Shown: one piece after another, positions 47-16,041 of the stretch
Layout: every line of letters begins with the position of its first letter
Numbering within the stretch: the stretch's first letter is position 1
DNA from: a virus
Taxonomy: Duplodnaviria; Heunggongvirae; Uroviricota; Caudoviricetes
Length of the DNA: 44,739 nucleotides
IMG/VR virus record: IMGVR_UViG_2713896776_000002
Strand: one strand, 5' to 3'
The notes under the pieces: generated by a model
Told to the model about the DNA's origin: nothing
What the model saw: the letters and a program-made list of their open reading frames with translations, nothing else
Database searches by the model: none
Made by a program: the position numbers and the translations under genes

Positions 47-1705
47 TTGGCAGCATCACCGCTACGCGCCAACATGGATGCCGCCAACTACAAGCACGTG
101 GTGCTGGGGCTTATCTTCCTCAAGTATGTGTCCGATGCCTTCGAGGCGCGTCAGCAGGAGCTAATCACCTTGTTCCGCGATGTCGGCAACCCGGACAACA
201 TCTATGCCATGTCGCGCGACGGTTACGACTCTGATGAAGAGTACGCACAGGCGATTGTGGATGAACTGGAGGTGGAAGATTACTACACCGAAAAGAACAT
301 CTTCTGGGTGCCGAAAGCCGCGCGCTGGGACACGCTGAAAAACAAAGCCATGTTGCCGACCGGCACCGTGCTGTGGGTGGATGAAACCACCGGCAAGGAT
401 GTGACGCTGCGCTCTGTGTCCTGGCTGGTGGATAACGCGCTCGATGAAATCGAAAAAACCAACCCGAAGCTGAAAGGTATTCTGAACCGTATCAGCCAGT
501 ATCAATTGGGCAACGAAGTGTTGACCGGGCTGATTAATACTTTCTCTGACGCCAACTTCAGCAACCCGGAATATAACGGCGAGAAGCTCAACTTAAAGAG
601 CAAAGATATTCTCGGTCACGTGTACGAATATTTCCTCGGTCAGTTCGCGCTGGCGGAAGGTAAGCAGGGCGGCCAGTATTACACGCCAAAAAGTATCGTC
701 ACCCTGATTGTTGAAATGCTGCAACCGTATAACGGGCGCGTGTATGACCCGGCGATGGGTTCCGGCGGGTTCTTTGTTTCCAGCGACCGTTTTATCGAAG
801 AGCACGCGGGCGAGAAGCAGTACAACGCCGCCGAGCAGAAGCGCAATATCTCTGTTTACGGCCAGGAGTCGAACCCGACCACCTGGAAGCTGGCGGCAAT
901 GAATATGGCGATCCGGGGTATCGACTTTAACTTCGGCAGCAAAAACGCCGACACCCTGCTGGACGACCAGCACCCGGATCTGCGAGCTGACTTCGTGATG
1001 GCGAACCCGCCGTTCAACATGAAGGAGTGGTGGAACGCCAAGCTGGAAAACGACGTGCGCTGGAAATACGGCACACCGCCGCAGGGCAACGCCAACTTTG
1101 CGTGGATGCAGCACATGATCCATCACCTTGCGCCAAAAGGTTCGATGGCGCTGCTGCTGGCGAACGGTTCGATGAGCTCCAACACCAACAACGAAGGCGA
1201 AATCCGCCGTAACCTGATCAAAGCCGATTTGGTCGAGTGCATGGTGGCGCTACCGGGCCAGCTCTTTACCAACACCCAAATCCCGGCCTGTATCTGGTTC
1301 CTGACCAAAGACAAATCCAGCGGCAACGGCAAAGCGCACCGCAAAGGCGAAGTGCTGTTTATCGACGCCCGCAAGATTGGCTTTATGAAAGACCGCGTGC
1401 TGCGTGACTTTACTCGTGAAGATATCGCCAGAATTGCCGACACCTTCCACAAATGGCAGGCAGATAAAGAGTACGAAGACGAAGCCGGATTCTGCTTCTC
1501 TGCAACGCTGGAAGATATTCAGAAAAACGACTTTGTGTTGACCCCTGGGCGCTATGTTGGTGCTACCGAGCAAGACGAAGATGATGAACCCTTTGCCGAG
1601 AAAATGGCACGATTGACGACGCAACTGAAAGATCAGTTGGAAGAGAGCGCGAACCTAGAAGCACAGATTAAGGCGAATCTGGGGGGGCTGGGTTATGAGT
1701 TTTGA
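47..1705 (+). CDS. hsdM: Type I restriction-modification system, DNA methyltransferase subunit HsdM
   Basis: 552-aa ORF; N6-adenine MTase motifs (DPAMGSGGFF = motif I, NPPF = motif IV); stop overlaps hsdS start. ORF starts at TTG 47 (first ATG at 74); in-frame TAA at 35-37 just upstream. Confidence 0.9.
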   Translation: MAASPLRANMDAANYKHVVLGLIFLKYVSDAFEARQQELITLFRDVGNPDNIYAMSRDGYDSDEEYAQAIVDELEVEDYYTEKNIFWVPKAARWDTLKNKAMLPTGTVLWVDETTGKDVTLRSVSWLVDNALDEIEKTNPKLKGILNRISQYQLGNEVLTGLINTFSDANFSNPEYNGEKLNLKSKDILGHVYEYFLGQFALAEGKQGGQYYTPKSIVTLIVEMLQPYNGRVYDPAMGSGGFFVSSDRFIEEHAGEKQYNAAEQKRNISVYGQESNPTTWKLAAMNMAIRGIDFNFGSKNADTLLDDQHPDLRADFVMANPPFNMKEWWNAKLENDVRWKYGTPPQGNANFAWMQHMIHHLAPKGSMALLLANGSMSSNTNNEGEIRRNLIKADLVECMVALPGQLFTNTQIPACIWFLTKDKSSGNGKAHRKGEVLFIDARKIGFMKDRVLRDFTREDIARIADTFHKWQADKEYEDEAGFCFSATLEDIQKNDFVLTPGRYVGATEQDEDDEPFAEKMARLTTQLKDQLEESANLEAQIKANLGGLGYEF

Positions 1706-3068
1706 GATTCCATTCTCTCATATTGCAGAGATTATTATGGGGCAATCCCCTAAAGGCGAAGAGGTTAATAATGAGGGGATAGGACTCCCCTTATTGAATG
1801 GACCTACAGAGTTTACTGACCGTTACCCTGCACCTGTGCAGCATACTGCATATGCAAAAAAAATATCGCTACCAGGAGATATTTTATTTTGTGTTCGTGG
1901 TTCAACAACCGGCAGGATGAACTATTCTGATCAAAAATATTGTATAGGTCGAGGTCTTGCTGCAATAAGAGGTCGAAACGGATATCCGACACCTTACGTT
2001 AAAGCTGTATTAGAGACTTATCTTCCTAAATTGCTGGCAGCTGCGACAGGATCAACTTTTCCTAATGTTAGCAAAGACCTTATTAATAATATTCCAGTAA
2101 GTGTTTTACCTGTTGAGAATGCTTGTAATATTAGTAAGCTCATCGAATTGCAGGAAGAGAAAGTATTCACGAATAATCAGATAAACCAAACCCTCGAACA
2201 AATGGCACAAGCCCTGTTCAAAAGCTGGTTTGTTAATTTTGAACCCGTAAAGGCCAAAATGGCAGTGCTGGAAGCGGGCGGTTCGCAGGAAGACGCAACG
2301 CTTGCCGCAATGACCGCCATTTCCGGGAAAAATGCGGATGCGCTAGCGGTTTTTGAGCGTGAACATCCTGAGCAGTATGCCGAATTAAAAGCCACGGCAG
2401 AGCTGTTTCCGTTGGCGATGCAGGACAGTGAGTTGGGGGAAATTCCGGAAGGGTGGACTCTATCTGAAATTGGAGCGCAAATCGATATTGCTGGTGGGGC
2501 AACGCCATCAACTAAAACACCTGATTTTTGGGATAATGGAGATATTCACTGGACTACACCTAAAGATTTATCCAACGTTAAAGACAAAATTTTACTGCAT
2601 ACAGAAAGAAAAATAACAAAAGCAGGATTGGGCAAAATTTCCTCTGGTTTACTACCTGTTAATACCGTGTTGATGTCATCACGTGCACCTGTGGGATACC
2701 TGGCAATTGCAAAAGTCCCTGTGGCGATTAATCAGGGATATATTGCCATGAAGTGTAATAAAGAGTTAAGCCCTGAATTCGTGTTACAGTGGTGTTCTGC
2801 AAACATGCCAGAAATTATATCTCGCGCAAGTGGTACCACCTTTGCTGAAATTAGTAAGAAAAATTTCAATCCAATTCCTCTTGTGAAGCCGCCACTTGAG
2901 CTTGTTAAAAATTATACCAAGCAAGTAAGTGCAATCTACTCGTTGATTGAAAATACTATGCGGGAAAATAATAGCCTAACCGAACTCCGCGACACCCTTC
3001 TCCCCAAACTTCTCTCGGGTGAAATTACCCTGCCGGAAGCAGAACAAATAATCAGCGAGGAAGCCTGA
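1695..3068 (+). CDS. hsdS: Type I R-M specificity subunit HsdS
   Basis: 457-aa ORF between hsdM and hsdR with overlapping start/stop codons; AT-rich variable regions flanking conserved stretches, typical of two target-recognition domains. Confidence 0.85.
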
Positions 3069-6000
3069 TGCTAAGCGAAGACGATTTAGAACAGCAATGC
3101 CTGCAATGGTTTGCTGAACAGGGCTGGGACGTGCTGCACGGGCCGGATATCGCACCGGATGGCGATAACCCGCTGCGTGCCTCATTTCATGATGTGTTTC
3201 TGCGCCCGGTAATGCTGGAACAGCTGCAAACCATCAATCCCCATCTCCCTGTTTCCGTGCTGGAGGAGGTGATACTGCGTATCGCCCATGCGCACAGCCC
3301 GGATCTGGTCGTCAGCAATAAAGTCTTTCATCACCTGCTGCTCAATGGCGTACCCGTTGAATATAAGCATGAAGACAAGGTAATTCACGATAACGCGCTG
3401 TTAATGGATTTCAACCATCCAGACAACAACCGCTTTATGGTGGTGAACCAGGTCGCCATTCAGGGAATAAAGCAGGTTCGTCGTCCGGATATCATTGGCT
3501 ATATCAACGGTCTGCCGGTGGCGGTGATTGAGCTGAAAAGCCCCATTGATGCTAACGCCGATATCTGGGCGGCGTTTAACCAGTTACAGACCTATAAAAA
3601 CGAATTGAGCGATCTGTTTATCTGTAACGAAGCGCTGGTGGTGAGCGATGGGCAGAATGCGCGCATTGGCTCTCTCACGGCGGATGAAGAGCGCTTCCTG
3701 CCGTGGAAAACGGTGGCGAACGAAAATGACAAACCGCAGTTTGACTGGCAGCTTAAAACCGTCGTGCAGGGCTTTTTTAACCGTGAATTATTGCTCGATT
3801 ATATCCGCTATTTTGTCCTGTTTGAGAATGACGGCAAACGGCTGATTAAGAAGATTGCCGCCTATCACCAGTTCCATGCAGTGCGTGAAGCGGTGACGGC
3901 GACGATTGTGGCCTCGACCGGTAAACACCTGCCGTTGCACAGTAATATTCAGCCCGGTAGTAAAAAAGCGGGGGTCGTCTGGCATACCCAGGGTTCCGGC
4001 AAAAGTATCTCTATGTGCTGCTATGCCGGGAAACTGCTGCAACAGGCGGAGATGAACAACCCGACCATTGTGGTGGTGACGGATCGCAACGATCTCGACG
4101 GCCAGTTATACGCCACCTTCTGCCAGGCACAGGATTTGCTGAAGCAGACGCCACTACAGGCCAACGATCGAGATGAATTGCGCGAGTTGCTTAATGCCCG
4201 TGAATCCGGCGGCATCATCTTTACCACCGTGCAGAAGTTTGCGCCGCTGGACGGTGAGCAGAGCCATCCGGCACTCAATCAGCGCAGCAACATCGTGGTG
4301 ATTTCGGATGAAGCGCACCGTAGCCAGTATGGCCTGAGCGCCACGCTGGACAGACAAACGGGTGTCTATAAATACGGCTACGCAAAACATATGCGCGACG
4401 CGCTGCCGAATGCGTCGTTTATGGGCTTTACCGGCACGCCGATTGCCTCGGAAGATAAAGATACCCGTGCCGTGTTCGGTGATTATGTCTCTATCTACGA
4501 CATTCAGGATGCGGTCGATGACGGCGCAACGGTGCCGATCTACTACGAATCCCGGCTGGCAAAACTCGACCTGAACCATGAAGAGTTGGAAACGCTATCC
4601 GATCAGGTCGATGAACTGGTAGAAGACGAAGAGACGGGTCAGCAGGAGAAAACCAAAGGCGACTGGAGCCGTCTGGAAAAGCTGGTCGGTTCAGAGCCGC
4701 GTATCAAACAGGTGGCGGCCGATCTGGTTCAACATTTTGAAACGCGCAATGCTGCTATGAACGGCAAAGCGATGATTGTCGCCATGAGCCGCGAGATCTG
4801 CGTGAAACTGTACGATGCCATCGTGGCGATCCGCCCGGAATGGCACAGTGAAGACGTTGAACAAGGGGCGATCAAAGTCATCATGACCGGATCGGCGTCA
4901 GATAAAGACCATCTGCAATCGCATATCTACAACAAACAGACCAAAAAACGCCTGGAAGCCCGCTTTAAAGATCTGAACGACCCGCTGAAACTGGTGATTG
5001 TGCGGGATATGTGGCTGACCGGGTTTGATGCCCCGTGCTGCCACACCATGTATATCGACAAACCGATGCGCGGCCATAACCTGATGCAGGCGATTGCCCG
5101 CGTTAACCGTGTGTTCCGGGATAAACCCGGCGGACTGGTGGTGGATTATATCGGCATTGCCAACGAGCTGAAGCAGGCGCTGAAAACCTATACCGACTCA
5201 AAAGGCAAAGGGCAGTCCACGGTCGATGCCCGGGAAGCCTTTGCCATTCTGCTGGAAAAAATCGACATTATTCATGGGATGTTTGCGCCCTCGGCAGGAA
5301 AACCCGGCTTCAGTTACGCAGGTTTTTCTCGCGACCCGTTAGCGTTCTTACGCGATGCGGTGAACTATATTCTGGGGCTGGATGACGGTAAAAAACGCTA
5401 CCTCGATGTTTCGCTGGCGATGAGTAAAGCCTGGTCACTGTGTAATACGCTGGATGAGGCGAAACCCTTACAGGAGGAGTTCGCGTTTCTTTCGGCGGTC
5501 AGGGTGGGGCTTATCAAGCTCGATCCGAAGGCAAAGTTTAGCCAGTCAGAAAAAAACTCTCTACTGAGCAAGATCCTCGATAACGCGGTTGTCGCGACCG
5601 GGGTTGAGGATGTCTTCGCACTCGCCGGGCTGGATAAACCGAACATAGGTTTGCTGTCCGATGAGTTTTTGGAAGAAGTGCGGGAAATGCCGCAGCGTAA
5701 TCTGGCAGTGGAACTGCTGGAAAAACTGCTCAATGACGGCATTCATGCCCGTTCGGGCAATAACGTGGTGCAGCAGAAGAAATACTCCGACCGACTGAAA
5801 GCGGTGCTGCTCAAATACAATAACCGCGCCATTGAGACCGCGCAGGTGATTGAAGAGCTGATCCAGATGGCGAAAGCGTTCCAGGAGGCGATGGCGCGTG
5901 ATGATGCGCTGGGGCTGACCCCGGATGAAATCGCCTTCTATGATGCGCTGGCTGAAAATGAAAGTGCAGTGCGTGAACTGGGCGATGATACGCTGAGAAA

Positions 6001-6199
6001 GCTGGCCATCGAAGTGACATTGAAATTGCGGCAGTCCACCACCGTGGACTGGCAGGTGCGTGAAAGCGTGCGTGCCCGATTGCGTATTCTGGTGCGCCAG
6101 ACGCTGCGTAAGTATAAGTATCCGCCGGACAAAACGCCGGGCGCCGTGGAACTGATTTTGAAGCAGGCAGAAGTGGTGTCGAACAGCTGGACAGTCTAA
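3068..6199 (+). CDS. hsdR: Type I R-M restriction subunit HsdR (helicase/nuclease)
   Basis: 1043-aa ORF; helicase motifs (GSGKS Walker A, DEAH box in [10 protein letters not shown]); ATG overlaps hsdS stop. Confidence 0.9.
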
Positions 6200-6800: not shown

Positions 6801-7427
6801 TTACCCGCGACTGCAGCCGAAATTACGGTCCCCATCACCGACTATTTTAGTTCTTACTTTGGTCATGTAATCCACCCTGTTCATCAAATCGCTATAAGTC
6901 TGCTCAAAGTTGTCCCTTTTACGATTTAGGAGATATTTTCCATTTGATGGGTAATTAACTAGCTTCCCAGAGTCATCTATCGGGATGCCAAGTGCACTGT
7001 ACCAGGCTGTTGTTATCATTGTACGTAACGTGTTACGCTTTAAGTCATAATCCCCCAAATGATAATAAGCATCCTGATTGAAACACAATATCAGATGGTA
7101 ATGCCGTTTTCCATTTTTGGTATATTCTCGGACCCATGCGTAACGTAAGGTTGAATGTCGGGTATCAGGCCAGTCTTTTCGTTGAGTTTTAATATGCTTA
7201 TCGTGTTCAAGCTTTGCTTTTAACGCACTGGTAAAGCGAGATATAGCACCAGAGTCAACTCTGGGTTGAAAGAATGGGTTATCCATATTTTCTGTATCAA
7301 TTGGATCATGCAGATCAACACGAAGAATCATTGAGTTAGGATGTTCGTTGAGGGAGTCATCAATAACCTGTTGTATTCTATCCCGATATAGGGATACGTG
7401 TGATCCGAATTCACTATCGTATGTCAT
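6801..7427 (-). CDS. YfjJ-like protein (inovirus Gp2 family), CP4-57-type island core gene
   Basis: 208-aa ORF; sequence and position next to DUF3987/AlpA/int recall yfjJ of CP4-57. Recognition by memory, not searched. Confidence 0.5.
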   Translation of the reverse strand: MTYDSEFGSHVSLYRDRIQQVIDDSLNEHPNSMILRVDLHDPIDTENMDNPFFQPRVDSGAISRFTSALKAKLEHDKHIKTQRKDWPDTRHSTLRYAWVREYTKNGKRHYHLILCFNQDAYYHLGDYDLKRNTLRTMITTAWYSALGIPIDDSGKLVNYPSNGKYLLNRKRDNFEQTYSDLMNRVDYMTKVRTKIVGDGDRNFGCSRG

Positions 7428-7456
7428 ATTGTATCCTATTTATTGATATTGGTGTA

Positions 7457-7481
7457 GGTAATATATACAATATATATTACC
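7457..7481. promoter_or_regulatory. Perfect inverted repeat GGTAATATATA-caa-TATATATTACC upstream of the yfjJ-like gene
   Basis: 11-bp arms, 3-bp spacer, 30 bp upstream of the minus-strand start at 7427; likely operator or promoter element. Confidence 0.4.
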
Positions 7482-7557
7482 TATCATGATAACAAACTAT
7501 TAGCCGGACTGGGCTCGGTGTTTGTTTTTACTCCTGAATTAAAATCATTTGTTATCA

Positions 7558-8973
7558 TCAAAGCACGGGGTTTAAACCAGCTATGGTTATCAATGTGGTT
7601 TTGCCTTTCTTTGCCACTAGTATTCTATTTTGAGAGTACAACATACCGAGTAATTCATTTGCTTTACTACGCTTTCTAAATTTATTAGGACCATATTGGA
7701 GAACAGTATTTTTAGTAATGTAAGGTACAACAAGGCGGTTACAATGATTTTTTATCCACCAATAAAGCTCATCCGCCTCCGAGATTGCGGGCGTTAATTC
7801 CTGAGGTTTAGAAAATATGTGGATGTACTCATTAACATACCAGGTAGTTATCTTCACAGCATCTTCGACTGCAGAAAGAGATATATCTCCATCATTGCCA
7901 TTAAAATAATGCAGCAGAGAGGCCACTCTGGCCATATTTTCTGCGACCTTAGATGCATAGTCTCTAAAATCTGATAAGGTGCCGAGTAAGCCCATATCTG
8001 ACTCCACCTTGTTATAAAATTCGATCCAGCGATTTTCTGCTTCTACAGAAAATCGCAGGCAAAGACGATCATTTTGATTATCTCTGGCAATACTTTCGTT
8101 AACTATCTCCATCAGTCGTTGATGGAATACCGGCAAATGTTCGCTTGAAACAACGGGGCTGGAGATTCTTCTGGAACCTTGCTTTGAATCAGGCTGGCAT
8201 ATGAGACATCGAGCGAAAAAACCGATCCCTTTGGCTGTATCGCCTTTACGTTGCAGATAACCTTTAAACACATCAGGCTGAACCATAAGTGCTAGCGTCA
8301 GTCTGGCATCTCTGATTAATTTCTCTGGCTCACTTTTCCTTTCCACTGAAAATGTTGCGCCATCCCACATTTTGTTGATGAAAGGCAGTTCGTTCAGCGT
8401 GTAACCGTTAAAAATAGTGCCAGCCTCATCAGACATGATACCGATAGATCGCCAATAACCACAGAGGTAATCTTTAATAGCCGCAGGAGTGGCATCATTA
8501 AATATCTGCTTGAACCTGATCGGTGGTTGCTGGTGCGACGCCAACAGCGCTTTAAGTTGTTCATTTGTCGCCAGATGATCTTTGTTACGGCGAATATCTG
8601 ATTTGAGTTTTGACATCAGTGCTTTTCTTTCAAAATTAAAAATTTCTTCATCACTTCGCCAGGTATTAAGAGCATGCGTGTACTTATCAAATAATTCTTC
8701 CTCCAGTTGATATAATGGCTTCATCAGCATTTTATCAACCGTACTTTTCCGTTCGCCAGATTCTGCAAGTGTCAGCAAGTAAAGTGATACTGGGCTACGT
8801 AGATTAGTAAGTCGACAAACATCAATCCGGTTCTGACAGGCAAGAGATATTACCCCAAGAGCAGAAGCAGCAATCAAACCTTGAGGGGCCTGCGTATGCT
8901 GTTCCACTTCATAAATTGCATTTCTGATAATCTGAGGGAACGCATTTACAGGAAAAGGATGACCGTTAAACAT
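7558..8973 (-). CDS. DUF3987-family protein (YfjI-like; P4-alpha helicase-related)
   Basis: 471-aa ORF; position between AlpA-like and YfjJ-like genes as in CP4-57. Family assignment from memory. Confidence 0.5.
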   Translation of the reverse strand: MFNGHPFPVNAFPQIIRNAIYEVEQHTQAPQGLIAASALGVISLACQNRIDVCRLTNLRSPVSLYLLTLAESGERKSTVDKMLMKPLYQLEEELFDKYTHALNTWRSDEEIFNFERKALMSKLKSDIRRNKDHLATNEQLKALLASHQQPPIRFKQIFNDATPAAIKDYLCGYWRSIGIMSDEAGTIFNGYTLNELPFINKMWDGATFSVERKSEPEKLIRDARLTLALMVQPDVFKGYLQRKGDTAKGIGFFARCLICQPDSKQGSRRISSPVVSSEHLPVFHQRLMEIVNESIARDNQNDRLCLRFSVEAENRWIEFYNKVESDMGLLGTLSDFRDYASKVAENMARVASLLHYFNGNDGDISLSAVEDAVKITTWYVNEYIHIFSKPQELTPAISEADELYWWIKNHCNRLVVPYITKNTVLQYGPNKFRKRSKANELLGMLYSQNRILVAKKGKTTLITIAGLNPVL

Positions 8974-9099
8974 ATAATACCTCTAATACAATTCACGTTA
9001 AAAAATTCTGCGCAAGTTGTTATTCCGCTATTAATAGCAGAAATAGCAGGATGAAATAACTCTAATTACAACATTTTGAATGTATGTTAGGTAATTACT

Positions 9100-9312
9100 T
9101 CAAATAAGTTTGCTGCGTTGCGATAGCCATTCATCAATCTCTGATTCAACCCATCCAACAGATTTCACTCCGAGCATTCGCTTTTTGGGGAAGGAAGCGT
9201 CGTAACGCGGTGATTTGGGGTTCAACCAGTCGTAGATTGTTGCCCTTGCCATACCAGTTTTTTGGATTACCGTAGGTAAGCGGAGTATCCTAACGGTTGA
9301 TGGATTGTTCAT
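9100..9312 (-). CDS. alpA: AlpA-family transcriptional regulator / excisionase-like HTH protein
   Basis: 70-aa ORF; motif RILRLPTVIQKTGMARATIYDW... typical of the AlpA/phage-Xis HTH family; sits next to a P4-type integrase. Confidence 0.7.
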   Translation of the reverse strand: MNNPSTVRILRLPTVIQKTGMARATIYDWLNPKSPRYDASFPKKRMLGVKSVGWVESEIDEWLSQRSKLI

Positions 9313-9419
9313 GCTTGATTGCCTCTCGTTAGTTCATTTTGGTTGTAGAAAGATTAGCGGCAAGCATTAATGCAAAAAATCCGCGTACCAAAAATACATT
9401 TTTTACAACACTTAACTAA

Positions 9420-9785
9420 TTGATATTTGGTGTTTTTATGTTGACAGCGATTGAGTTTTGCGAAGAAATTAGTCAAAAATCGGTTTGTCTTTCTGGGCAG
9501 ATGGTCGAATGTGATTGGGACATATACATTGATATGCTCAGCGAAAGTTATCCTGCGATACTGAAGGAACTAAGCGAAATGCGAGATCAGTTCTGGAATT
9601 CTGATAAGGTAGGAACACGTGTGGTTTTGTATAGTGCTCCATCTCATGAAGAGTATAAATATTGTACTGGTGACAGAGTGGGTCAATTAATAGAGGAATA
9701 TGCTGAATTATATGATCCAGTTCAGGAATGCTGGAAAGAGTTAAAGTCACGTATTTTCAGGGGAACATTTTCTCATCTTATTTAG
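9420..9785 (+). CDS. Hypothetical protein (AT-rich island cargo)
   Basis: 121-aa ORF, AT-rich, opposite strand to island core genes; no recognisable motif. Confidence 0.35.
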   Translation: MIFGVFMLTAIEFCEEISQKSVCLSGQMVECDWDIYIDMLSESYPAILKELSEMRDQFWNSDKVGTRVVLYSAPSHEEYKYCTGDRVGQLIEEYAELYDPVQECWKELKSRIFRGTFSHLI

Positions 9786-9863
9786 GATCCTTTTTTAATT
9801 AATGATGTGTTTAAATCACATCTATTTTTTGCCTCGATGTCTTATCAATGGGGAAAATCAGTT

Positions 9864-10316
9864 ATGTCAGAGAATGAGTGTGTTGCTATTAAAGCATTCA
9901 TTAAATCTTCTGAATTATTTGATAGATGTATTGGTATGTCATGGTTTCATGTTTCTGTATGTGCTCAAAAAAAATTATCCCATGTTAGAGCTAAAGCCGG
10001 AAAACAAGGTGGGAGCAGTAAAGCGGAAGTATATCGAGTAATTCAAGATAAACTTGTTTATTTGATCAATGAATCTGTTCCTGAAGGTGGGTGGAAAAGT
10101 AAAGCAGCTGCGGTAAATGCTCTCATTGATCCTTTGTGGGACTTTATTAAAGAGTCAAATTTTGACATTAATAATGAAAGTAAAAAATATCGTATCGCAA
10201 CAATGAGCCAAGATGCTTTGGAAGATACTATTATTAAAAACTGGTCAAGAAATATTGAAAGTATCAAATTGGCTTTAGATAATACAGTTGCTAGAAAAAA
10301 GAAAGTCACAGGATAA
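9864..10316 (+). CDS. Hypothetical protein (AT-rich island cargo)
   Basis: ORF 9807-10316; start placed at ATG 9864 (MSENEC...) preceded by GGGGAAAA RBS; no recognisable domain. Confidence 0.35.
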   Translation: MSENECVAIKAFIKSSELFDRCIGMSWFHVSVCAQKKLSHVRAKAGKQGGSSKAEVYRVIQDKLVYLINESVPEGGWKSKAAAVNALIDPLWDFIKESNFDINNESKKYRIATMSQDALEDTIIKNWSRNIESIKLALDNTVARKKKVTG

Positions 10317-10374
10317 AAGCCCGTATTATTAATAGTTGAATTATCAGCACCCATTATGGGTGCTGATAAAGGAT

Positions 10375-11616
10375 TCATCCCACAAGCCGTATTCCCCTAA
10401 CCCCACTATTAACGATACTGCCGCTATCTGCTGCTTTTACAAAATCAGCCCACCATTGCATCATCGGACGACGTTGCTCAAGATAATCACTGCGGTTATA
10501 AGCGCGACGCACCTCATTTTTGTCTACATGAGCAAGCGCTGCTTCAATGACATCAGGTGGAAATCCTTCCTCATTGAGTGCCGTACTGGCGATAGAACGC
10601 AAGCCGTGTGAAACAAGTACACCTCCTAAGCCAGCACGCTTGAGTGCTGCATTCACTGTTTGGCTATTCATTGGTTGGTTGGGCTTGATACGGCTAGGAA
10701 AGATAAATTCTCGGCCACCACTGAGAGGCTTCATCATTTCCAGAATAGCAAGAGCCCCATCAGATAGTGGAACCGTATGGTCCCGGTTCATCTTCATTCG
10801 AGCTGCAGGAATTTTCCATTCGCTAGCATTGAAATCGATCTCATCCCATCGAGCCTCAGCAGCTTCGGCAGGGCGGGTGATGGTTAGAAGTTGCCACATG
10901 AACAGGCATCGTGTGGACAGGCTGATACTTACCGTGCGCATAGTCTGCATTAATTGTGGAAGTTGATCCGGGCGGATACTAGGCATGTTTTTCTTCTGCG
11001 GTTTCTCGAATGCTTTCCCGATGTTAACGCTGGGAACAGCATCAATTAGGCCTGTGTTCTGAGCATAAATCATGACTTCGTTAATACGCTGACAAAGGCG
11101 GCGAACAGTCTCTAATGCACCTCTGGCCTGAACCGGCTGCACTGCTTTAACCAGAGTATGAGCCTTAATCTCGGTGACACTGATATCACCGATTGCTGGG
11201 AAAACATCTCTCTCAAGCGAGCGCCAGATATCATCGGCATAGTCCTCTGTTACGCTGGCTTTCTTCACATTCCACCAACGCTCGGCAACTAACAGGAAAG
11301 TGTTGGTTTTAGCCTCTTGAGAATTTCTAACCTGCTCTTTCTGATGTTCCTGAGGATCAATGTCTTTCGCCAATAAAACTCGAGATTCAGCTCTGAGTTT
11401 ACGCGCATCAGAAAGGGAGACAGCAGGGTAGGCTCCGAAGCTTTGCTTGGTTCGCTGTTTTGTCAGAGGTCGATAGTAACGGAATTGCCAGAGCTTACTA
11501 CCACTGGACTTGATTAACAGAGTAAGCCCGTCACCATCATATAGCTGGTAATCGGCATCTTTAGGTTTGGCGGCTTTGATTTCCGTATCGGTTAACGGCT
11601 TGGTTTTTCTTGCCAT
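10375..11616 (-). CDS. Tyrosine recombinase, P4-type integrase (CP4-57 IntA-like)
   Basis: ORF 10375-11652; start placed at MARKTKPLTDTEIKAAKPK (ATG 11616, GGAGA RBS); DUF4102-like N-terminus; sits 204 bp from the ssrA 3'-end copy. Confidence 0.9.
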   Translation of the reverse strand: MARKTKPLTDTEIKAAKPKDADYQLYDGDGLTLLIKSSGSKLWQFRYYRPLTKQRTKQSFGAYPAVSLSDARKLRAESRVLLAKDIDPQEHQKEQVRNSQEAKTNTFLLVAERWWNVKKASVTEDYADDIWRSLERDVFPAIGDISVTEIKAHTLVKAVQPVQARGALETVRRLCQRINEVMIYAQNTGLIDAVPSVNIGKAFEKPQKKNMPSIRPDQLPQLMQTMRTVSISLSTRCLFMWQLLTITRPAEAAEARWDEIDFNASEWKIPAARMKMNRDHTVPLSDGALAILEMMKPLSGGREFIFPSRIKPNQPMNSQTVNAALKRAGLGGVLVSHGLRSIASTALNEEGFPPDVIEAALAHVDKNEVRRAYNRSDYLEQRRPMMQWWADFVKAADSGSIVNSGVRGIRLVG

Positions 11617-11819
11617 GGGGAGTCTCCATGCGTTTAGGCCCAACGAAAACAATAGAGCTTTTCGTTGGGCCTATCAATGGGCCTAAAAGGTTCGGATTTA
11701 ATTAGTTCTCTTCGGACTTCGCGGGACAAAGTGAGGGCACAAAAAAGCCCGCAGGGCTTGCGCCGTGCGGGCTCTTAGGACTTCATCGGATGACTCTGGT
11801 AATCACCGATGGAGAATTT

Positions 11820-11851
11820 TGGTGGAGCTGGCGGGAGTTGAACCCGAGTCC
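11820..11851 (-). repeat. ssrA (tmRNA) 3'-terminal fragment = attachment-site core copy (att) at the junction of the two elements
   Basis: Minus-strand reading ggacTcgggttcaactcccgccagctccacca matches the tmRNA 3' end (ending CCA) with one mismatch; similarity stops after ~32 nt, so no full tmRNA gene is present. Confidence 0.7.
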
Positions 11852-11924
11852 GTATTTTTATAATTAGCTGAAATAAAACGATTAATACTAACCATTTTAT
11901 TCTGCGGATCTTTTGCGGCTCCTT

Positions 11925-12824
11925 TTATGTCTGGATGTGGTCGTCAACACATCCTCTTTTAAATACAGGCGCTTTTACCTTAGTTGGATCATCTGTTTTA
12001 AAGATTTTCAATCGTTCACTGAAGAACATTACCTCAGATCCTTTGTACCGATCTTGAGCACTGTAGTTTATTCCATATACTAATGATGATGTCTTATACA
12101 TAGCTTGGATCTCAGGAGTGTTATCGTAAGAAACAATCCAAGGTGTTTTAATATTATTCTGTACGACTTTTGCAACCCTAACATGATCATCATGATTATA
12201 ATGGTTGATATATAAACCTTTACCTTTTATGTAATAAGGTGGATCCAAATATGTTAATGAGTTTTGTGGCAATTGAATAACTATTTTTTTAATGAAATCA
12301 ATTGCATCCATGTTATATAAATCTATTCTGTGACGATTTTCTGATATTTTATGGATTCGAGAAATCAAATCACTCTTATTATAGCGAGCGTCAAGCTTCC
12401 ATTTCCCTTCTTGATTTTTACCGCCAATTACTCCACCTTTTAATATTCCAGAACGATTTGTTCTATTGAGAAAAAAGGTTGAGAAACCAATTGTTAAAAG
12501 ATCATGGTCTTTAGGATTATTAATTATATCTTTCTGCCTAAACCATTCATCCATTGTAACTTCAGTTCTTTCAATTAAAGAACATAATTGATCTGCATGA
12601 TTTAATACACTGTGCCAAAAAGCATAAACAGAAATATTAATATCATTAAGGATGATTTTTTCAGCTGCATTTAGATGTAACAGTTTCAATGCTAAACCAG
12701 CACCCCCAGCATATGGTTCGGCATAATGTATAGGCGAAAGATTATTTTCTTCAATAAGCCGAAGCATGAAATTTGCAAGCTTGCCTTTACCGCCAGGATA
12801 GCGAAGTGGGGTGTTAAAACGCAT
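11925..12824 (-). CDS. DNA adenine methyltransferase, Dam family (D12 class N6-adenine MTase)
   Basis: 299 aa; motifs LRYPGGKGKL (Dam N-terminal), EPYAGGAG (AdoMet), LDPPY (catalytic motif IV); AT-rich. Confidence 0.8.
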   Translation of the reverse strand: MRFNTPLRYPGGKGKLANFMLRLIEENNLSPIHYAEPYAGGAGLALKLLHLNAAEKIILNDINISVYAFWHSVLNHADQLCSLIERTEVTMDEWFRQKDIINNPKDHDLLTIGFSTFFLNRTNRSGILKGGVIGGKNQEGKWKLDARYNKSDLISRIHKISENRHRIDLYNMDAIDFIKKIVIQLPQNSLTYLDPPYYIKGKGLYINHYNHDDHVRVAKVVQNNIKTPWIVSYDNTPEIQAMYKTSSLVYGINYSAQDRYKGSEVMFFSERLKIFKTDDPTKVKAPVFKRGCVDDHIQT

Positions 12825-12903
12825 ATGATACCTCTAAATGTCAGATCTAAAGTATATCAAAAAAAGGGCTTTGTGGCCATCACATAAAGCCCTTTTTAAT
12901 CAA

Positions 12904-14637
12904 TTAGTTATCTGACAGATATGATGAGATGGTAGCAGAATCGACACCATGTCCACTTGTCATAATAACTTTAAGACTCTTTATTAGTTCATTCTTGAAG
13001 CTATCCGATTGCACAGGATTTTTCTCGACCCAATATCGATATGGGTTATCTTTAACTCGCCCTTTTACTTGGGCCTGAAATTGAGTCGTATGTGCAAAAT
13101 CTTTAAACAGTTTTCTAACTATCCCGCCATGGTTTTTGTTAACTTTTTTATAATTATCTATAAGGATTTTTAAATCAATCGGAGCGTTACCAATCTTTAG
13201 CGTTGCAATTATGTCTTTAGCTGTTTTCATAAAAACAGCTTTTGTAAATTTATTTTTATTTTCCCAATATGCATCATCAGGTGGTAAATTATATAAAAAC
13301 TCAAAAATCATTTGGTCTGGAGGTAAGGTGCTTGGAAGCAAACATAAGTTTTTTTCTTTTTTGGCTTTTTTTGCATTAGCACTATTGTCGTGAACAACAT
13401 CACCGTCTAAGACGATCAAGCTTTTAGCTGTAAATTCTGGTATTTTTCTTGCCATTAAGTCAAGCATGGCAGAGCAGCTAATATTTATATTCCCTAATGG
13501 ATTTAATATTTTATTTATTTTTCGATCTGTTATCAATTGTTTGAAAAAGTCGAAACCTTCTTTGTCTTCAAAATATACATTTGCCTTTGGAAGACAAATG
13601 TCATCATTAATTTTTACAGTTTCAACATGTAAATCAGCGTGGATATCTGTCCATGAAAGATTATTCTTTGTTTTAATATCTCCATATGTGTCTGTAAGAT
13701 ATATTGTTTTAAAGCTATCACTATCTTGTTTTGAACGATTATAGATATCCTCTATTATTAATGGAGAGTGCGAGGTCATGATTATTTGCAGATCGTATTG
13801 TTTTGCTGCTTTAGTTAGAATATTAATTAGCTCTAACTGTGCAGCAGGGAAAAGACCTGCATCGGCTTCATCAATTAACAATATTCCGCCATGATAATCA
13901 GAATAAGTTTCCTTCAATCTTTTAAATGAAAAAATTGCTTGGATTAATTGTCCAACATTATCTTCACCAACAGATACTGATTGGTGATCATAATTGTCAC
14001 CATGGACAACCATTGAATCGATAGTACCTTTTGTTGCTGTTACTGAGCTTCCATTGTTTTTTAGTAAGAGTTGGTTACTCATCATTCTGATTTCATCAGA
14101 ATTTTCATTGATGTACTGAACATCCCGTGTTGAGTAATCAGTCCTTAATGTAATAGGAAGAAGTCGTGCTAAGCTTAAAAAAATAACAGGATGAGTAACG
14201 TTTCTACTTTGGTTTTTTTCCGGTATTGAATCATTTCCCCTGACTACAGGCCTTGATTTATCTCTGTCACTGTAGCTGTATAAACCTAATGTTAGTTTTT
14301 CAAGATGTTTGTTCGATGCACCATCATAGACACTAATTTTGACGTCCATTGAACCAGGAACATCAAATTGTTCTGAAAGCCTAAAATGTTCGCTGAAAGC
14401 TGACTTGAAGCTGCCATTTGTTAATGTTTTATATTGTGTTAAATCAGTCTCAGGGTTTTTGGTAAAGTCCTTTGTAAAGCTAAATATTTGGGCGATAATG
14501 CCAAGAATTGTGGATTTAGATGTGCCATTTTTACCACAAATAACAGTTAGGCGAGAACCAAACTCGATGTTTATATTTTTCAGTCCGCGAAACTTCACAA
14601 CATTTATATTTTTTAGTTTGGTAATTTGATTTGCCAT
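12904..14637 (-). CDS. OLD-family-like ABC ATPase with C-terminal TOPRIM-like domain (candidate exclusion nuclease)
   Basis: ORF 12904-14688; start placed at MANQITKL (ATG 14637). Walker A GKNGTSKST, Walker B ILLIDEAD, H-loop MTSHSP; C-terminal YFEDKEG ... IVLDGD resembles TOPRIM E and DxD motifs. Same size class as P2 Old. Confidence 0.55.
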   Translation of the reverse strand: MANQITKLKNINVVKFRGLKNINIEFGSRLTVICGKNGTSKSTILGIIAQIFSFTKDFTKNPETDLTQYKTLTNGSFKSAFSEHFRLSEQFDVPGSMDVKISVYDGASNKHLEKLTLGLYSYSDRDKSRPVVRGNDSIPEKNQSRNVTHPVIFLSLARLLPITLRTDYSTRDVQYINENSDEIRMMSNQLLLKNNGSSVTATKGTIDSMVVHGDNYDHQSVSVGEDNVGQLIQAIFSFKRLKETYSDYHGGILLIDEADAGLFPAAQLELINILTKAAKQYDLQIIMTSHSPLIIEDIYNRSKQDSDSFKTIYLTDTYGDIKTKNNLSWTDIHADLHVETVKINDDICLPKANVYFEDKEGFDFFKQLITDRKINKILNPLGNINISCSAMLDLMARKIPEFTAKSLIVLDGDVVHDNSANAKKAKKEKNLCLLPSTLPPDQMIFEFLYNLPPDDAYWENKNKFTKAVFMKTAKDIIATLKIGNAPIDLKILIDNYKKVNKNHGGIVRKLFKDFAHTTQFQAQVKGRVKDNPYRYWVEKNPVQSDSFKNELIKSLKVIMTSGHGVDSATISSYLSDN

Positions 14638-14660
14638 GTTTCTATCTTGCTCCGTAAAAT

Positions 14661-14677
14661 GGCCACAAATTGTGGCC
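14661..14677. promoter_or_regulatory. Palindrome GGCCACAA-a-TTGTGGCC between the int stop and the OLD-like gene start
   Basis: 8-bp perfect arms; sits in the likely 5' leader of the OLD-like gene. Confidence 0.35.
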
Positions 14678-14695
14678 AATAGTTTCATGCTTGGA

Positions 14696-15862
14696 TTATA
14701 TTGTTATCTTCTTCAAGCTTGTTTGTCCATCATATTCCTTCAGATATGAGCCATAGTGCCTGAAAAGCATCTCAGGCCCTTTATGCCCCATTTGAGCTGC
14801 AAGCCAAAACAGGTTTGCTCCCCGGCTGATATGTCTGGTGGCGAATGTATGCCTGGTTTGATATGGGTTTCTGTAACGAATACCTGCTTTTCGCAATGTT
14901 GGCACCCATGCTTTTTTCCTAATTGCATCAGCACTTGCCCAGGGTTTATTGGTCTTTGGATCTTCAAAGACAGTAGCATCCTTCATGAATGTAAATGGCT
15001 TCTGGTTTATCAACGCCAACATTGCTTCTTCAGTCAGTTCAACTTTACGGGTACCGGCTTTTGTCTTTGTTCCTTTGATAACTCCGACAACACTTGCGCT
15101 CTGAACATGGGCTGTTTTTCCAACAAAGTCGATATCATGCCATCGTAGGGCACATAATTCAGAACTACGCAGGCCTGTATGTATGGCGAACCGGAACAGA
15201 TTTTCCCATTGTTTGTTTCCGGCTGCTGCTAGTAATGCATCAACTTCTGCTGGTGATAGCGGATCAACCACATAGCTGCTTTCTGCTTCTGACTTATCAC
15301 TTTGGTAGCGCGAAGCAGTTACCAACGATACGGGGTTAATTTGAAGTACCCCATCGGTTACGGCTTCATCAAGTGCTGACCGCAGGAAAGATAACTGGTT
15401 GCGAATTGTTTTTAAGGTCGTTTTCTGGCTTTGAATCCACGCTTTCAGGATTGCTGGTGTTAATTCACTTGCAGGGCAAATGTGGAGTGAGGCTAACGCA
15501 CTACGGCATTTTTTATAACCACCAATCGTAGATGGTGAAAGTTTTCTCGTTTCGCAGATTTCAAGGTATTCGTCCAGGTACATTTTTACCGTTTTGCCTG
15601 CAGCAGCATTACCAAAAATTTTCAAACGAGCAGAACGGGGAAAATATTCCGCATAAATGAATGTTCCCCTTTCGATCTTATTATGAATTTCGCCGAGTGT
15701 GCGCTCGGCGTATTTAATGTTCTTTGGTGTTACTTCCAGATTGGAAAGAGGCTCACGACATTTAACGCCTTTGTAGGTGAAAGTTATATTGATCGTTTCG
15801 CCCTGGCGGTGTTTCCTGATTGTTACGCCGCGCGGTAGTTTGAGCAGTTTTGTCTGGCCCAT
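14696..15862 (-). CDS. Phage integrase, tyrosine recombinase
   Basis: 388 aa; C-terminal catalytic region ...RHTFATRHISRGANLFWLAAQMGHKGPEMLFRHYGSYL (R-H-R-Y signature); overlaps upstream xis. Confidence 0.9.
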   Translation of the reverse strand: MGQTKLLKLPRGVTIRKHRQGETINITFTYKGVKCREPLSNLEVTPKNIKYAERTLGEIHNKIERGTFIYAEYFPRSARLKIFGNAAAGKTVKMYLDEYLEICETRKLSPSTIGGYKKCRSALASLHICPASELTPAILKAWIQSQKTTLKTIRNQLSFLRSALDEAVTDGVLQINPVSLVTASRYQSDKSEAESSYVVDPLSPAEVDALLAAAGNKQWENLFRFAIHTGLRSSELCALRWHDIDFVGKTAHVQSASVVGVIKGTKTKAGTRKVELTEEAMLALINQKPFTFMKDATVFEDPKTNKPWASADAIRKKAWVPTLRKAGIRYRNPYQTRHTFATRHISRGANLFWLAAQMGHKGPEMLFRHYGSYLKEYDGQTSLKKITI

Positions 15863-16041
15863 TTTGCAACCTCACTAAGATCAATCCACCTCTCCTTAAC
15901 GCCTTCAACCTTTAAAACCTGAACACCTTCACGCCAAACACCGCGCTGTACACGTTTGTTTATTGCTTCAGGAGTTTCGCCAGTTTCTTTGCAATAAGTT
16001 GAGATAGGAACACAATCGAGGTTCAGCATATGTTTCTCCAC
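15823..16041 (-). CDS. Excisionase-like protein (Xis/TorI-like)
   Basis: 72-aa ORF immediately upstream of and overlapping int; small basic HTH-like protein. Confidence 0.55.
   Translation of the reverse strand: MEKHMLNLDCVPISTYCKETGETPEAINKRVQRGVWREGVQVLKVEGVKERWIDLSEVAKWARQNCSNYRAA

Follow-up and report, generated by a model that had tools for sequence, protein, structure and literature searches.

PD-lambda-5, which consists of the ECOR7 proteins A and B (RCQ13837.1 and RCQ13838.1), is a validated and broad defence system (Vassallo et al. 2022, Nat Microbiol). The host in which it was cloned had to lack the mrr region, a need that we read as a sign that its methylase is active in vivo. HEC-04, a fusion of an ATPase with a Toprim domain, has been validated as a defence as well, and its Walker A and E/D/D mutants are inactive (bioRxiv 10.1101/2024.01.29.577857). 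For the OLD proteins, a review lists four classes, and a methylase-linked class is not among them (PMC10568477); the view of the initial annotation that the pair of genes analysed here stands outside the described OLD classes is thus in agreement with that review.

The pair was found in a window of 44,739 nucleotides (the whole stretch of DNA analysed; IMG/VR record IMGVR_UViG_2713896776_000002, Caudoviricetes), where a phiNP-like E. coli prophage carries the two genes between its integrase and an ssrA att site (Table 1). The att core, TGGTGGAGCTGGCGGGAGTTGAACC (11820-11844), is identical to the attP of the Citrobacter phage phiNP, published as the 25-bp ssrA 3′ end (PMC6456863). Identity to ssrA extends 2 bp past this core (to 11846), and in E. 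coli genomes lacking the neighbouring island the match to the window begins at ~11815-11820. The att site proposed earlier is therefore real, but its label "attL" is a matter of orientation only, since the window holds no complete tmRNA gene. As had been described, two co-directional AT-rich genes fill the space between att and integrase, both on the minus strand, and the 12-14 kb portion of the window has a GC content of 0.32-0.33, compared with 0.45-0.55 in the flanks. The integrase matches the Pfam families Arm-DNA-bind_2 (5.5e-23) and Phage_integrase (1e-16). The gene order xis-int-ATPase-methylase is common to the window prophage and phiNP, which has the same pair at the same position with an 87% identical ATPase, and the window region is present in E. 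coli 042 at 99% DNA identity; carriage by phiNP and E. coli 042 makes the cassette experimentally tractable. phiNP is an active temperate phage that lysogenises E. coli K-12.

Table 1. Coordinates of the features of the locus, in positions of the window.
Feature	Position	Strand	Basis or remark
ssrA 3′-end att core	11820..11846	-	prophage boundary marker
D12-class N6-adenine DNA methyltransferase, 299 aa, PD-Lambda-5_B family	11925..12824	-	Pfam, PADLOC
ATPase-methylase intergenic region	12825..12903	-	hairpin and promoter-like site
ATPase open reading frame, 594 aa	12904..14688	-	list of open reading frames
Toprim-like C-terminal domain, residues ~332-577	12907..13644	-	Toprim-like alpha/beta core, then helical region
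N-terminal ABC (OLD/SMC/RecF-like) ATPase domain	13645..14637	-	motifs
17 additional codons of the ATPase gene, possibly a leader or N-terminal extension	14638..14688	-	homologues mostly start downstream
Tyrosine integrase, phiNP-type prophage	14696..15862	-	other edge of the cargo slot

The methylase holds every catalytic motif of an N6-adenine methylase, including the RYPGGK, EPYAGGAG and DPPY motifs reported before, and the anticipated Pfam match to MethyltransfD12 was obtained (2e-19). However, the name "Dam-family" proved too specific: the score against TIGR00571 was 54.1 bits for a curated cut-off of 114.85, so that by its sequence the enzyme is of the D12 class and not a Dam. An M.EcoGII-like non-specific enzyme was rejected as its identity, EcoGII being of the beta class. 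Among the PADLOC models, the methylase matched PD-Lambda-5_B (PDLC04018) at 5.1e-124 (411 bits, residues 1-282 against positions 1-283 of the 291 in the model) and MTase_II (PDLC03358) at 4e-107; the methylase of a PD-lambda-5-type locus, to which it is 51% identical, scored 403 bits with the former. The initial annotation overlooked that this methylase family is known from the validated PD-lambda-5, which is thereby the closest known relative of the pair and leaves the module not wholly undescribed. The other component of that system is missing from the window: PD-Lambda-5_A did not rise above generic ATPase matches in the best 25 PADLOC matches of the 594-aa protein, all weaker than 1e-20, while the A protein of a PD-lambda-5-type locus scored 1e-167. 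Among the genes and features examined, the window methylase has only the ATPase and the att core as neighbours.

The ATPase start that is conserved in the family and used by RefSeq is M18, giving a protein of 577 aa (12904..14637), and most homologues begin at this downstream methionine. Its N-terminal domain has the Walker A (GKNGTSKS), signature-like (SxGEDN), Walker B (LLIDEAD) and H-loop (TSHSP) motifs that characterise the ABC ATPase of the OLD family. The strings GKNGTSKST, ILLIDEAD, MTSHSP, YFEDKEG and IVLDGD quoted in the initial annotation are all in the translation, and its ABC ATPase assignment fits the Pfam AAA_15/AAA_21-type motifs. With NCBIfam, the best 25 of 39 matches of the full-length protein were all to ATPase families. 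Walker A, Walker B and the H-loop are invariant in 79/79 loci, as are the DPPY and AdoMet motifs of the methylase.

The C-terminal domain looks like a very divergent, Toprim-like putative nuclease tail. The acidic residues E357/D358 (about 13564-13569) and D411/D413 (about 13399-13407) are also invariant in 79/79 loci, and this E...DxD coincides exactly with the strand ends of beta1 and beta3. The TOPRIM_OLD match that had been expected did not appear, Pfam being silent on the domain alone and the best NCBIfam matches being those to ATPases given above. Taken alone, the window domain matched no Pfam, NCBIfam or PADLOC model, HEC-04 included, and a profile of 40 such domains, run by hmmsearch against all sequences of the PDB, yielded nothing beyond a chance match (E 3.4). 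Foldseek against the PDB yielded no significant match, with TsOLD at the top probability (0.35) and XccOLD at the top TM (0.31/0.35). When the domain profile and the full-length profile were aligned by hhalign to P2 Old, only the Walker B region aligned, an outcome that is not evidence against a Toprim since a single sequence is too weak a target. The HEC-04 model of PADLOC matched the full ATPase protein at 2e-16, with the P-loop as the best stretch, and the C-terminal domains of relatives matched positions 312-409 of this model, its Toprim region, at 3e-7, 1e-3 and 4e-3. Relatives of ~500 aa were rejected as HEC-04 proper at 1e-25, and their C-terminal domains are also invisible to Pfam.

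If the C-terminal domain were not a nuclease, the ATPase could be an accessory of the methylase (a loader, a specificity or translocation factor, or a regulator) and the pair an epigenetic or anti-restriction module, shielding the phage genome and not attacking others. We regard both parts of this explanation as improbable, given the position of the invariant acidic residues at the strand ends and the match of relatives to the Toprim region of HEC-04 at 3e-7. D12 methylases are moreover monomers that work without ATPases, and one validated defence system joins the same methylase family to an unrelated effector.

In order to evaluate the linkage of the two genes, we used 80 loci with an ATPase homologue, one genome per species, from Proteobacteria, Bacteroidota, Mycobacterium, Listeria and Acidobacteria. 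A methylase homologue was present in 78 of them, usually 41-130 nt downstream of the ATPase and in most loci on the same strand; the two exceptions are both cut by contig ends, and no intact locus among the 80 had the ATPase homologue without the methylase. The co-occurrence called for in the initial annotation is thereby established, and the pairing across phyla rules out its fallback, in which a class-1 OLD just has an orphan Dam beside it. The divergence of one protein is correlated with that of the other (r = 0.77, Mantel p = 0.001). A remote relative (26% identity) in a P2-hotspot locus has the order methylase then ATPase, other remote loci (Vibrio phage ValB1MD-2; P0309, P0316, P0329 and P0338) keep the pair despite a different gene order, and in three-gene loci elsewhere a related ATPase is accompanied by PD-lambda-5 A and the methylase (B). 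The cassette occupies four cargo hotspots (phiNP-type int-att, e14-type icd-int, P4-like satellite and P2 gpA-portal) and occurs in 85-87 of 5,426 complete E. coli genomes (about 1.6%), and its relatives are found in at least five phyla, always in mobile elements.

These data largely refute, and make very improbable, the idea that two independent morons travel together, with the methylase as an orphan adenine enzyme and the ATPase as a class-1-like OLD exclusion nuclease. Prophages do contain either kind of gene by itself, but the 78/80 co-occurrence, the linkage kept in rearranged remote relatives, the co-divergence and the lack of a solitary ATPase homologue all speak against it. The intergenic region between the two genes does hold, as consensus matches only, a hairpin (~12861-12896), whose loop contains the half-site GGCCACAA, and a promoter-like TGGCCA-17-TATACT (12879..12851), and separate expression could thus be possible in this lineage, which is in favour of independent genes; most family members have instead an ATPase-methylase gap of 41-47 nt with neither hairpin nor promoter-like elements. 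The perfect palindrome announced for the leader is present as GGCCACAAATTGTGGCC at 14661-14677, in the stretch from the stop codon of int to the conserved start of the ATPase, and is even longer than thought, its full extent being 19 nt (TGGCCACAAATTGTGGCCA, 14660-14678); matches were found in 0/100 shuffles. It was rejected as a conserved operator, as it is absent from other family members and lineage-specific.

We propose, with a probability of about 0.45, that the pair is one functional unit, an RM-like anti-phage cassette carried as mobile-element cargo and armed with an OLD-like putative effector. The methylase would mark host and prophage DNA, and the 577-aa protein would be the effector, its ABC head dimerising on, or scanning, DNA and licensing a very divergent, metal-dependent C-terminal Toprim nuclease, which would attack incoming DNA that lacks the mark. 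Toxicity of the nuclease alone could be the reason why it never occurs without the methylase. We count in favour of this RM-like unit the obligate linkage, co-divergence and invariant catalytic centres, the four different hotspots, the existence of alternative effectors for the same methylase family, one of them validated (PD-lambda-5), and the validation of HEC-04 together with the match of relatives to its Toprim region. On the other side, we know of no Toprim restriction endonuclease, and OLD-like relatives act without a methylase, some of them (AriB) cutting tRNA and not DNA. The methylase is also evenly conserved, its putative target-recognition region included, and the comparison of its conservation revealed no specificity region co-varying with the nuclease, as would be expected under classical RM, which counts against the RM-like reading.

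A further point against it is that the obligate linkage would be explained equally well by the main rival, a guard or abortive infection system resembling PrrC-EcoprrI or PARIS, which we consider rather unlikely. The ATPase-Toprim protein would be held inactive by the methylase, or would monitor it, and an attack on the methylase by a DNA mimic or an anti-restriction protein from a phage would free the nuclease to cut tRNA or bulk nucleic acid, so that the cell is killed or arrested; this course of events we likewise consider rather unlikely. The three-gene loci, in which the ATPase stands beside a complete PD-lambda-5 A+B as a back-up module would, and one relative that immediately follows a Type I HsdR gene are consistent with such a guard, and OLD-ABC/Toprim modules inside BREX and RM loci have been read as back-up suicidal effectors (PMC12839542). 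However, the two-gene form of the window has no restriction component to guard, P2 Old and HEC-04, comparable ATPase-Toprim defences made of one gene, need no methylase, and since the catalytic motifs of the methylase do not vary in 79/79 loci, methyl transfer itself is selected, and not just a bait surface.

Returning to the RM-like unit, the cassette is best read, as far as its sequence tells, as a sibling of PD-lambda-5 in which the ParB/HEPN effector would have been swapped for an OLD/HEC-04-like ATPase-Toprim effector. We also put forward, tentatively, that the 577-aa protein may be the first Toprim/OLD-type ATP-dependent restriction endonuclease, degrading DNA without the cognate PD-lambda-5_B-type m6A mark. 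If so, restriction enzymes would gain a new nuclease fold, the OLD-like proteins would have a fifth class, one linked to a methylase, and the PD-lambda-5 methylase would be a common "self-marking" hub for ParB/HEPN effectors, ATPase-Toprim effectors, or both. More generally, the pair looks like a widespread putative RM-like anti-phage module. PADLOC-DB 2.0 has no model for the window ATPase, and the methylase alone would thus probably be classed as an orphan or as an incomplete PD-lambda-5. A functional pair would be an unnamed defence cassette that ties an OLD/HEC-04 effector lineage to DNA modification, makes the PD-lambda-5 methylase a module shared among interchangeable effectors, and offers a clean test case for "restriction versus guard" logic.

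Like Type II (or ATP-dependent) RM systems, the mobile cassette of the window couples a D12 m6A methylase of the alpha class closely to a putative nuclease. The partner differs, however, in being none of the PD-(D/E)XK, HNH, GIY-YIG or PLD restriction enzymes and in having an ABC ATPase. In PrrC-EcoprrI and RloA-RloB, an arrangement that follows an "RM+Abi" logic, an ABC-type ATPase with a nuclease is also tied genetically to a DNA-modification enzyme, but these proteins sit inside complete Type I systems with their own HsdR, whereas the cassette has no separate restriction subunit and its D12 methylase is small and monomeric. The context fits none of the OLD classes (1, P2 Old/TsOLD; 2, GajA; 3, retron Eco8; 4, PARIS AriA/AriB), whose members stand alone or with a UvrD-like helicase, a retron or a split AriA/AriB, and not with a D12 methylase, and the window protein differs further from the OLD family in matching no OLD/Toprim model of Pfam or NCBIfam. 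In the HEC-04/IbfA type (Payne et al. 2024 preprint), a single polypeptide has an ABC ATPase followed by a Toprim at the C-terminus, as predicted for the window protein, and the spacing of its acidic residues (E319/D375/D377) is similar to that of E357/D411/D413; HEC-04 acts, however, as a single gene and has no methylase partner. PD-lambda-5 shares with the window its methylase family and its form, a two-gene cassette in a prophage cargo hotspot. Its protein A (~500 aa, with a ParB/DUF262-like N-terminus and a HEPN-like C-terminus) is replaced in the window by the ATPase, which is unrelated to it, and the three-gene loci with a related ATPase, A and B bridge the two architectures.

On the minus strand the prophage integrase is followed by the 594-aa ORF, the 299-aa ORF and a 25-mer, TGGTGGAGCTGGCGGGAGTTGAACC, which is the exact attP/ssrA 3′-end core of Citrobacter phage phiNP (PMC6456863); past this core come the ssrA terminator and then a second island in tandem, with its own P4-type integrase, and no complete tmRNA gene was found within the window. 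The GC content is 32-33% in both cassette genes and 45-55% in the flanks. The initial annotation's description of two co-directional AT-rich genes between the att site and the integrase was thereby confirmed, and all the motifs it cited were found in the translations. The window derives from E. coli. Among 5,426 complete genomes of this species, 85 match positions 11600-15900 over 80% or more of the stretch, and identity is 97.9-100% in the top 20 of the matches listed. The second integrative element at ssrA resembles CP4-57 or a P4-like satellite. The neighbouring island also carries a complete Type I restriction-modification operon, and therefore two modification-based systems lie less than 12 kb apart.

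Features of the window around the ATPase-methylase cassette
Feature	Position	Strand	Remarks
Type I operon	47-6199	+	complete
HsdM		+	ORF start close to window edge; N6_Mtase 3e-115
HsdS	within 47-6199	+	Methylase_S
HsdR	within 47-6199	+	HSDR_N, SWI2_SNF2, T1RH-like_C
Second integrative element	6801-11652	-	
YagK/YfjJ protein	6801..7427	-	second element
DUF3987 primase-like protein	7558..8973	-	second element
AlpA-like 70-aa ORF	9100..9312	-	second element
P4-type integrase	10375..11652	-	second element
att core	11820-11844	-	
299-aa ORF	11925..12824	-	'DNA adenine methylase'
594-aa ORF	12904..14688	-	RefSeq 'AAA family ATPase'; RefSeq and family-conserved start M18 gives 577 aa
Prophage integrase	14696..15862	-	phiNP-type

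The ATPase ORF may begin 17 codons 5′ of the annotated Met (14638-14688); the long form (595 aa) is annotated or predicted in phiNP and some Citrobacter homologues, and the downstream Met start in most of the family. The palindrome reported in the leader was borne out at 14661-14677, extends to 19 nt (14660-14678) and had 0 matches in 100 shuffles. Its half-site GGCCACAA recurs at 12871-12878, within the hairpin loop between the ATPase and methylase genes, where it overlaps a promoter-like -35 TGGCCA; it is lineage-specific, and the two copies could serve as a common operator or be a site for the methylase/nuclease.

In order to evaluate the linkage of the two genes, a pattern-plus-tblastn scan with one genome per species was used, which gave 80 loci with ATPase homologues (42-89% identity) from Gamma- and Betaproteobacteria, Bacteroidota, Mycobacterium, Listeria and Acidobacteria. 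The proposed co-occurrence held: 78 loci also encode a homologue of the window methylase, about 72 of them directly after the ATPase gene, in the same orientation and separated from it by 41-130 nt, and the two loci without it both run into a contig edge. The pairwise distances of the two proteins are correlated (Pearson 0.77, Mantel p = 0.001), and invariant in 79/79 loci are the methylase RYPGGK, EP.AGG and DPPY, the ATPase Walker A K41, SxGEDN, Walker B D256/E257 and H290, and E357/D358 and D411/D413 of the C-terminal domain (CTD; residues ~332-577). The linkage is also retained in remote relatives, with the order reversed at a P2-hotspot locus (methylase, then ATPase; E 3e-26), with convergent genes in the P2-like Vibrio phage ValB1MD-2, and in four relatives of ~500-640 aa found by phmmer with the CTD. 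Given this co-occurrence and its persistence in remote gene orders, the independent-neighbour reading was dropped and with it the suggestion of an orphan Dam next to an OLD; that the genes are two independent morons is highly improbable.

Four separate cargo hotspots of E. coli elements carry the cassette: the phiNP-type int-att site of the window, icd-intE in an e14-like prophage (47% ATPase identity), a P4-like satellite (76%) and P2 gpA-portal (26%). Phage phiNP shares the xis-int-ATPase order, with an ATPase 87% identical to that of the window. At 43926-44807 of OR565852.1 (4314-5195 of comparison locus L097) phiNP encodes an intact D12 methylase of 293 aa that closely resembles the one in the window. 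The deposited annotation omits this ORF and shows no gene 3′ of the ATPase; the C. rodentium prophage paper lists phiNP ORF56 and ORF59 simply as 'ATPase' fitness factors (PMC6456863).

The methylase belongs to the D12 class, as first proposed (MethyltransfD12, Pfam 2e-19), and the Dam identity is rejected (TIGR00571, 54 bits, with the cut-off at 114.85). Its best PADLOC model is PD-Lambda-5_B (5e-124, 411 bits), and a Type II methylase model ranks second (4e-107). A PD-lambda-5-type locus in an E. coli P2 hotspot (A at 1e-167) has a methylase that scores 403 bits for B and is 51% identical to ours and, judged by these values, the window methylase is as good a match to PD-Lambda-5_B as the genuine type. 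Protein A is absent from the window and the ATPase stands in its place. PD-lambda-5, a two-gene system of ECOR7 that has been validated ('ParB/HEPN, methyltransferase'), affected 9 of ten phages tested, and its cloning required a host lacking the mrr region (Vassallo et al. 2022).

Three metagenomic or genomic loci join a related ATPase to both PD-Lambda-5_A and PD-Lambda-5_B, in the orders ATPase-A-methylase, ATPase-A(5e-138)-methylase and A-like-ATPase-methylase, and may be an 'uncompacted' form of PD-lambda-5. Across the two- and three-gene loci the methylase thus stays constant, joined by a ParB/HEPN effector, by an ATPase-Toprim effector or by the two together. A further hotspot of the same methylase family is found in E. 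coli 2014C-3599 (L088, 3901-6205), where a PD-lambda-5-like pair, its protein A annotated as ParB/Srx (4e-74) and its two genes convergent, lies just downstream of a lambdoid-prophage antiterminator Q gene. A methylase-then-ATPase pair of a remote subfamily (L093, 1-5548) immediately follows a Type I hsdR gene, which recalls 'restriction-linked' Rlo/PrrC modules.

The ATPase half of the initial ATPase/TOPRIM reading is supported by Pfam for residues 1-~330 (ABC-type; AAA_15, AAA_21), but the CTD had no Pfam match in any of eight diverse members. A 40-sequence CTD profile found no match among PDB sequences, the whole protein falls in phrog_3940 ('unknown function'), and PADLOC gave only generic matches among the best 25 (PtuA, AriA, GajA, HEC-04 and retron ATPase-Toprim, 1e-13 to 4e-20). 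The AF2 model of the CTD alone is confident (pLDDT 93.5), with helices behind a beta-alpha-beta-alpha-beta-alpha-beta core; E357/D358 lie right after the first strand and D411-x-D413 right after the third. This placement matches the Toprim topology, reportedly described by Aravind et al. 1998. Named beside the model are AriB (5.6, 144), the BpOLD C-terminal region (5.4, 150) and TsOLD (5.2, 120). Isolated CTDs of three relatives match the Toprim part of the PADLOC HEC-04 model (positions ~312-409; 3e-7, 1e-3 and 4e-3), to which the CTD of the window had no match. The E-to-DxD spacing of 54-56 in the window CTD agrees with that of 56-58 in HEC-04, an ATPase-TOPRIM fusion whose defence depends on the lysine of Walker A and on E319/D375/D377 (preprint 10.1101/2024.01.29.577857). 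The CTD is probably a highly divergent Toprim domain with putative nuclease activity, and it is rare (194 of 1.84 billion cluster representatives match at E <= 1e-3); a non-nuclease accessory role for the ATPase is improbable.

The best-supported reading, to which we give a probability of about 0.45, is a restriction-modification-like unit, in which self DNA would be marked by the methylase, and DNA without the mark attacked by the ATP-driven Toprim nuclease. It is favoured because the nuclease gene was never seen without the methylase while the methylase occurs with other effectors, because the methyl-transfer motifs are invariant, because the gene pair moves as a block and because the family methylase is presumably active in vivo in PD-lambda-5, as read from the mrr-deleted cloning host. 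The methylase is conserved evenly along its length, so that no specificity-determining region is seen to co-vary with the ATPase, which mildly disfavours a classical sequence-specific RM pair. The three-gene loci, the pair beside hsdR and the 'RM+Abi' description of PD-lambda-5 would rather suit a guard/Abi arrangement like PrrC-EcoprrI or PARIS, in which a nuclease restrained by or monitoring the methylase fires upon phage anti-restriction interference; the two-gene form without any restriction component and the conserved methylase chemistry speak against it, and we regard it as the main rival but as less likely.

The pair is, judged from sequence, a real and conserved cassette of putative defence type. 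PADLOC-DB 2.0 holds no specific model for the ATPase and our literature search found no paper naming the pair, although an earlier in-silico mention may exist; joint action of ABC ATPase-nuclease modules and RM systems was proposed by Krishnan et al. 2020, according to a passage in PMC12839542. The modification side would work as in PD-lambda-5 or RM systems and the effector side as in OLD/HEC-04. The cassette lies outside PD-lambda-5 as defined since component A is absent, it fits none of the four classes of OLD proteins covered by the review PMC10568477, and its methylase is not a Dam.
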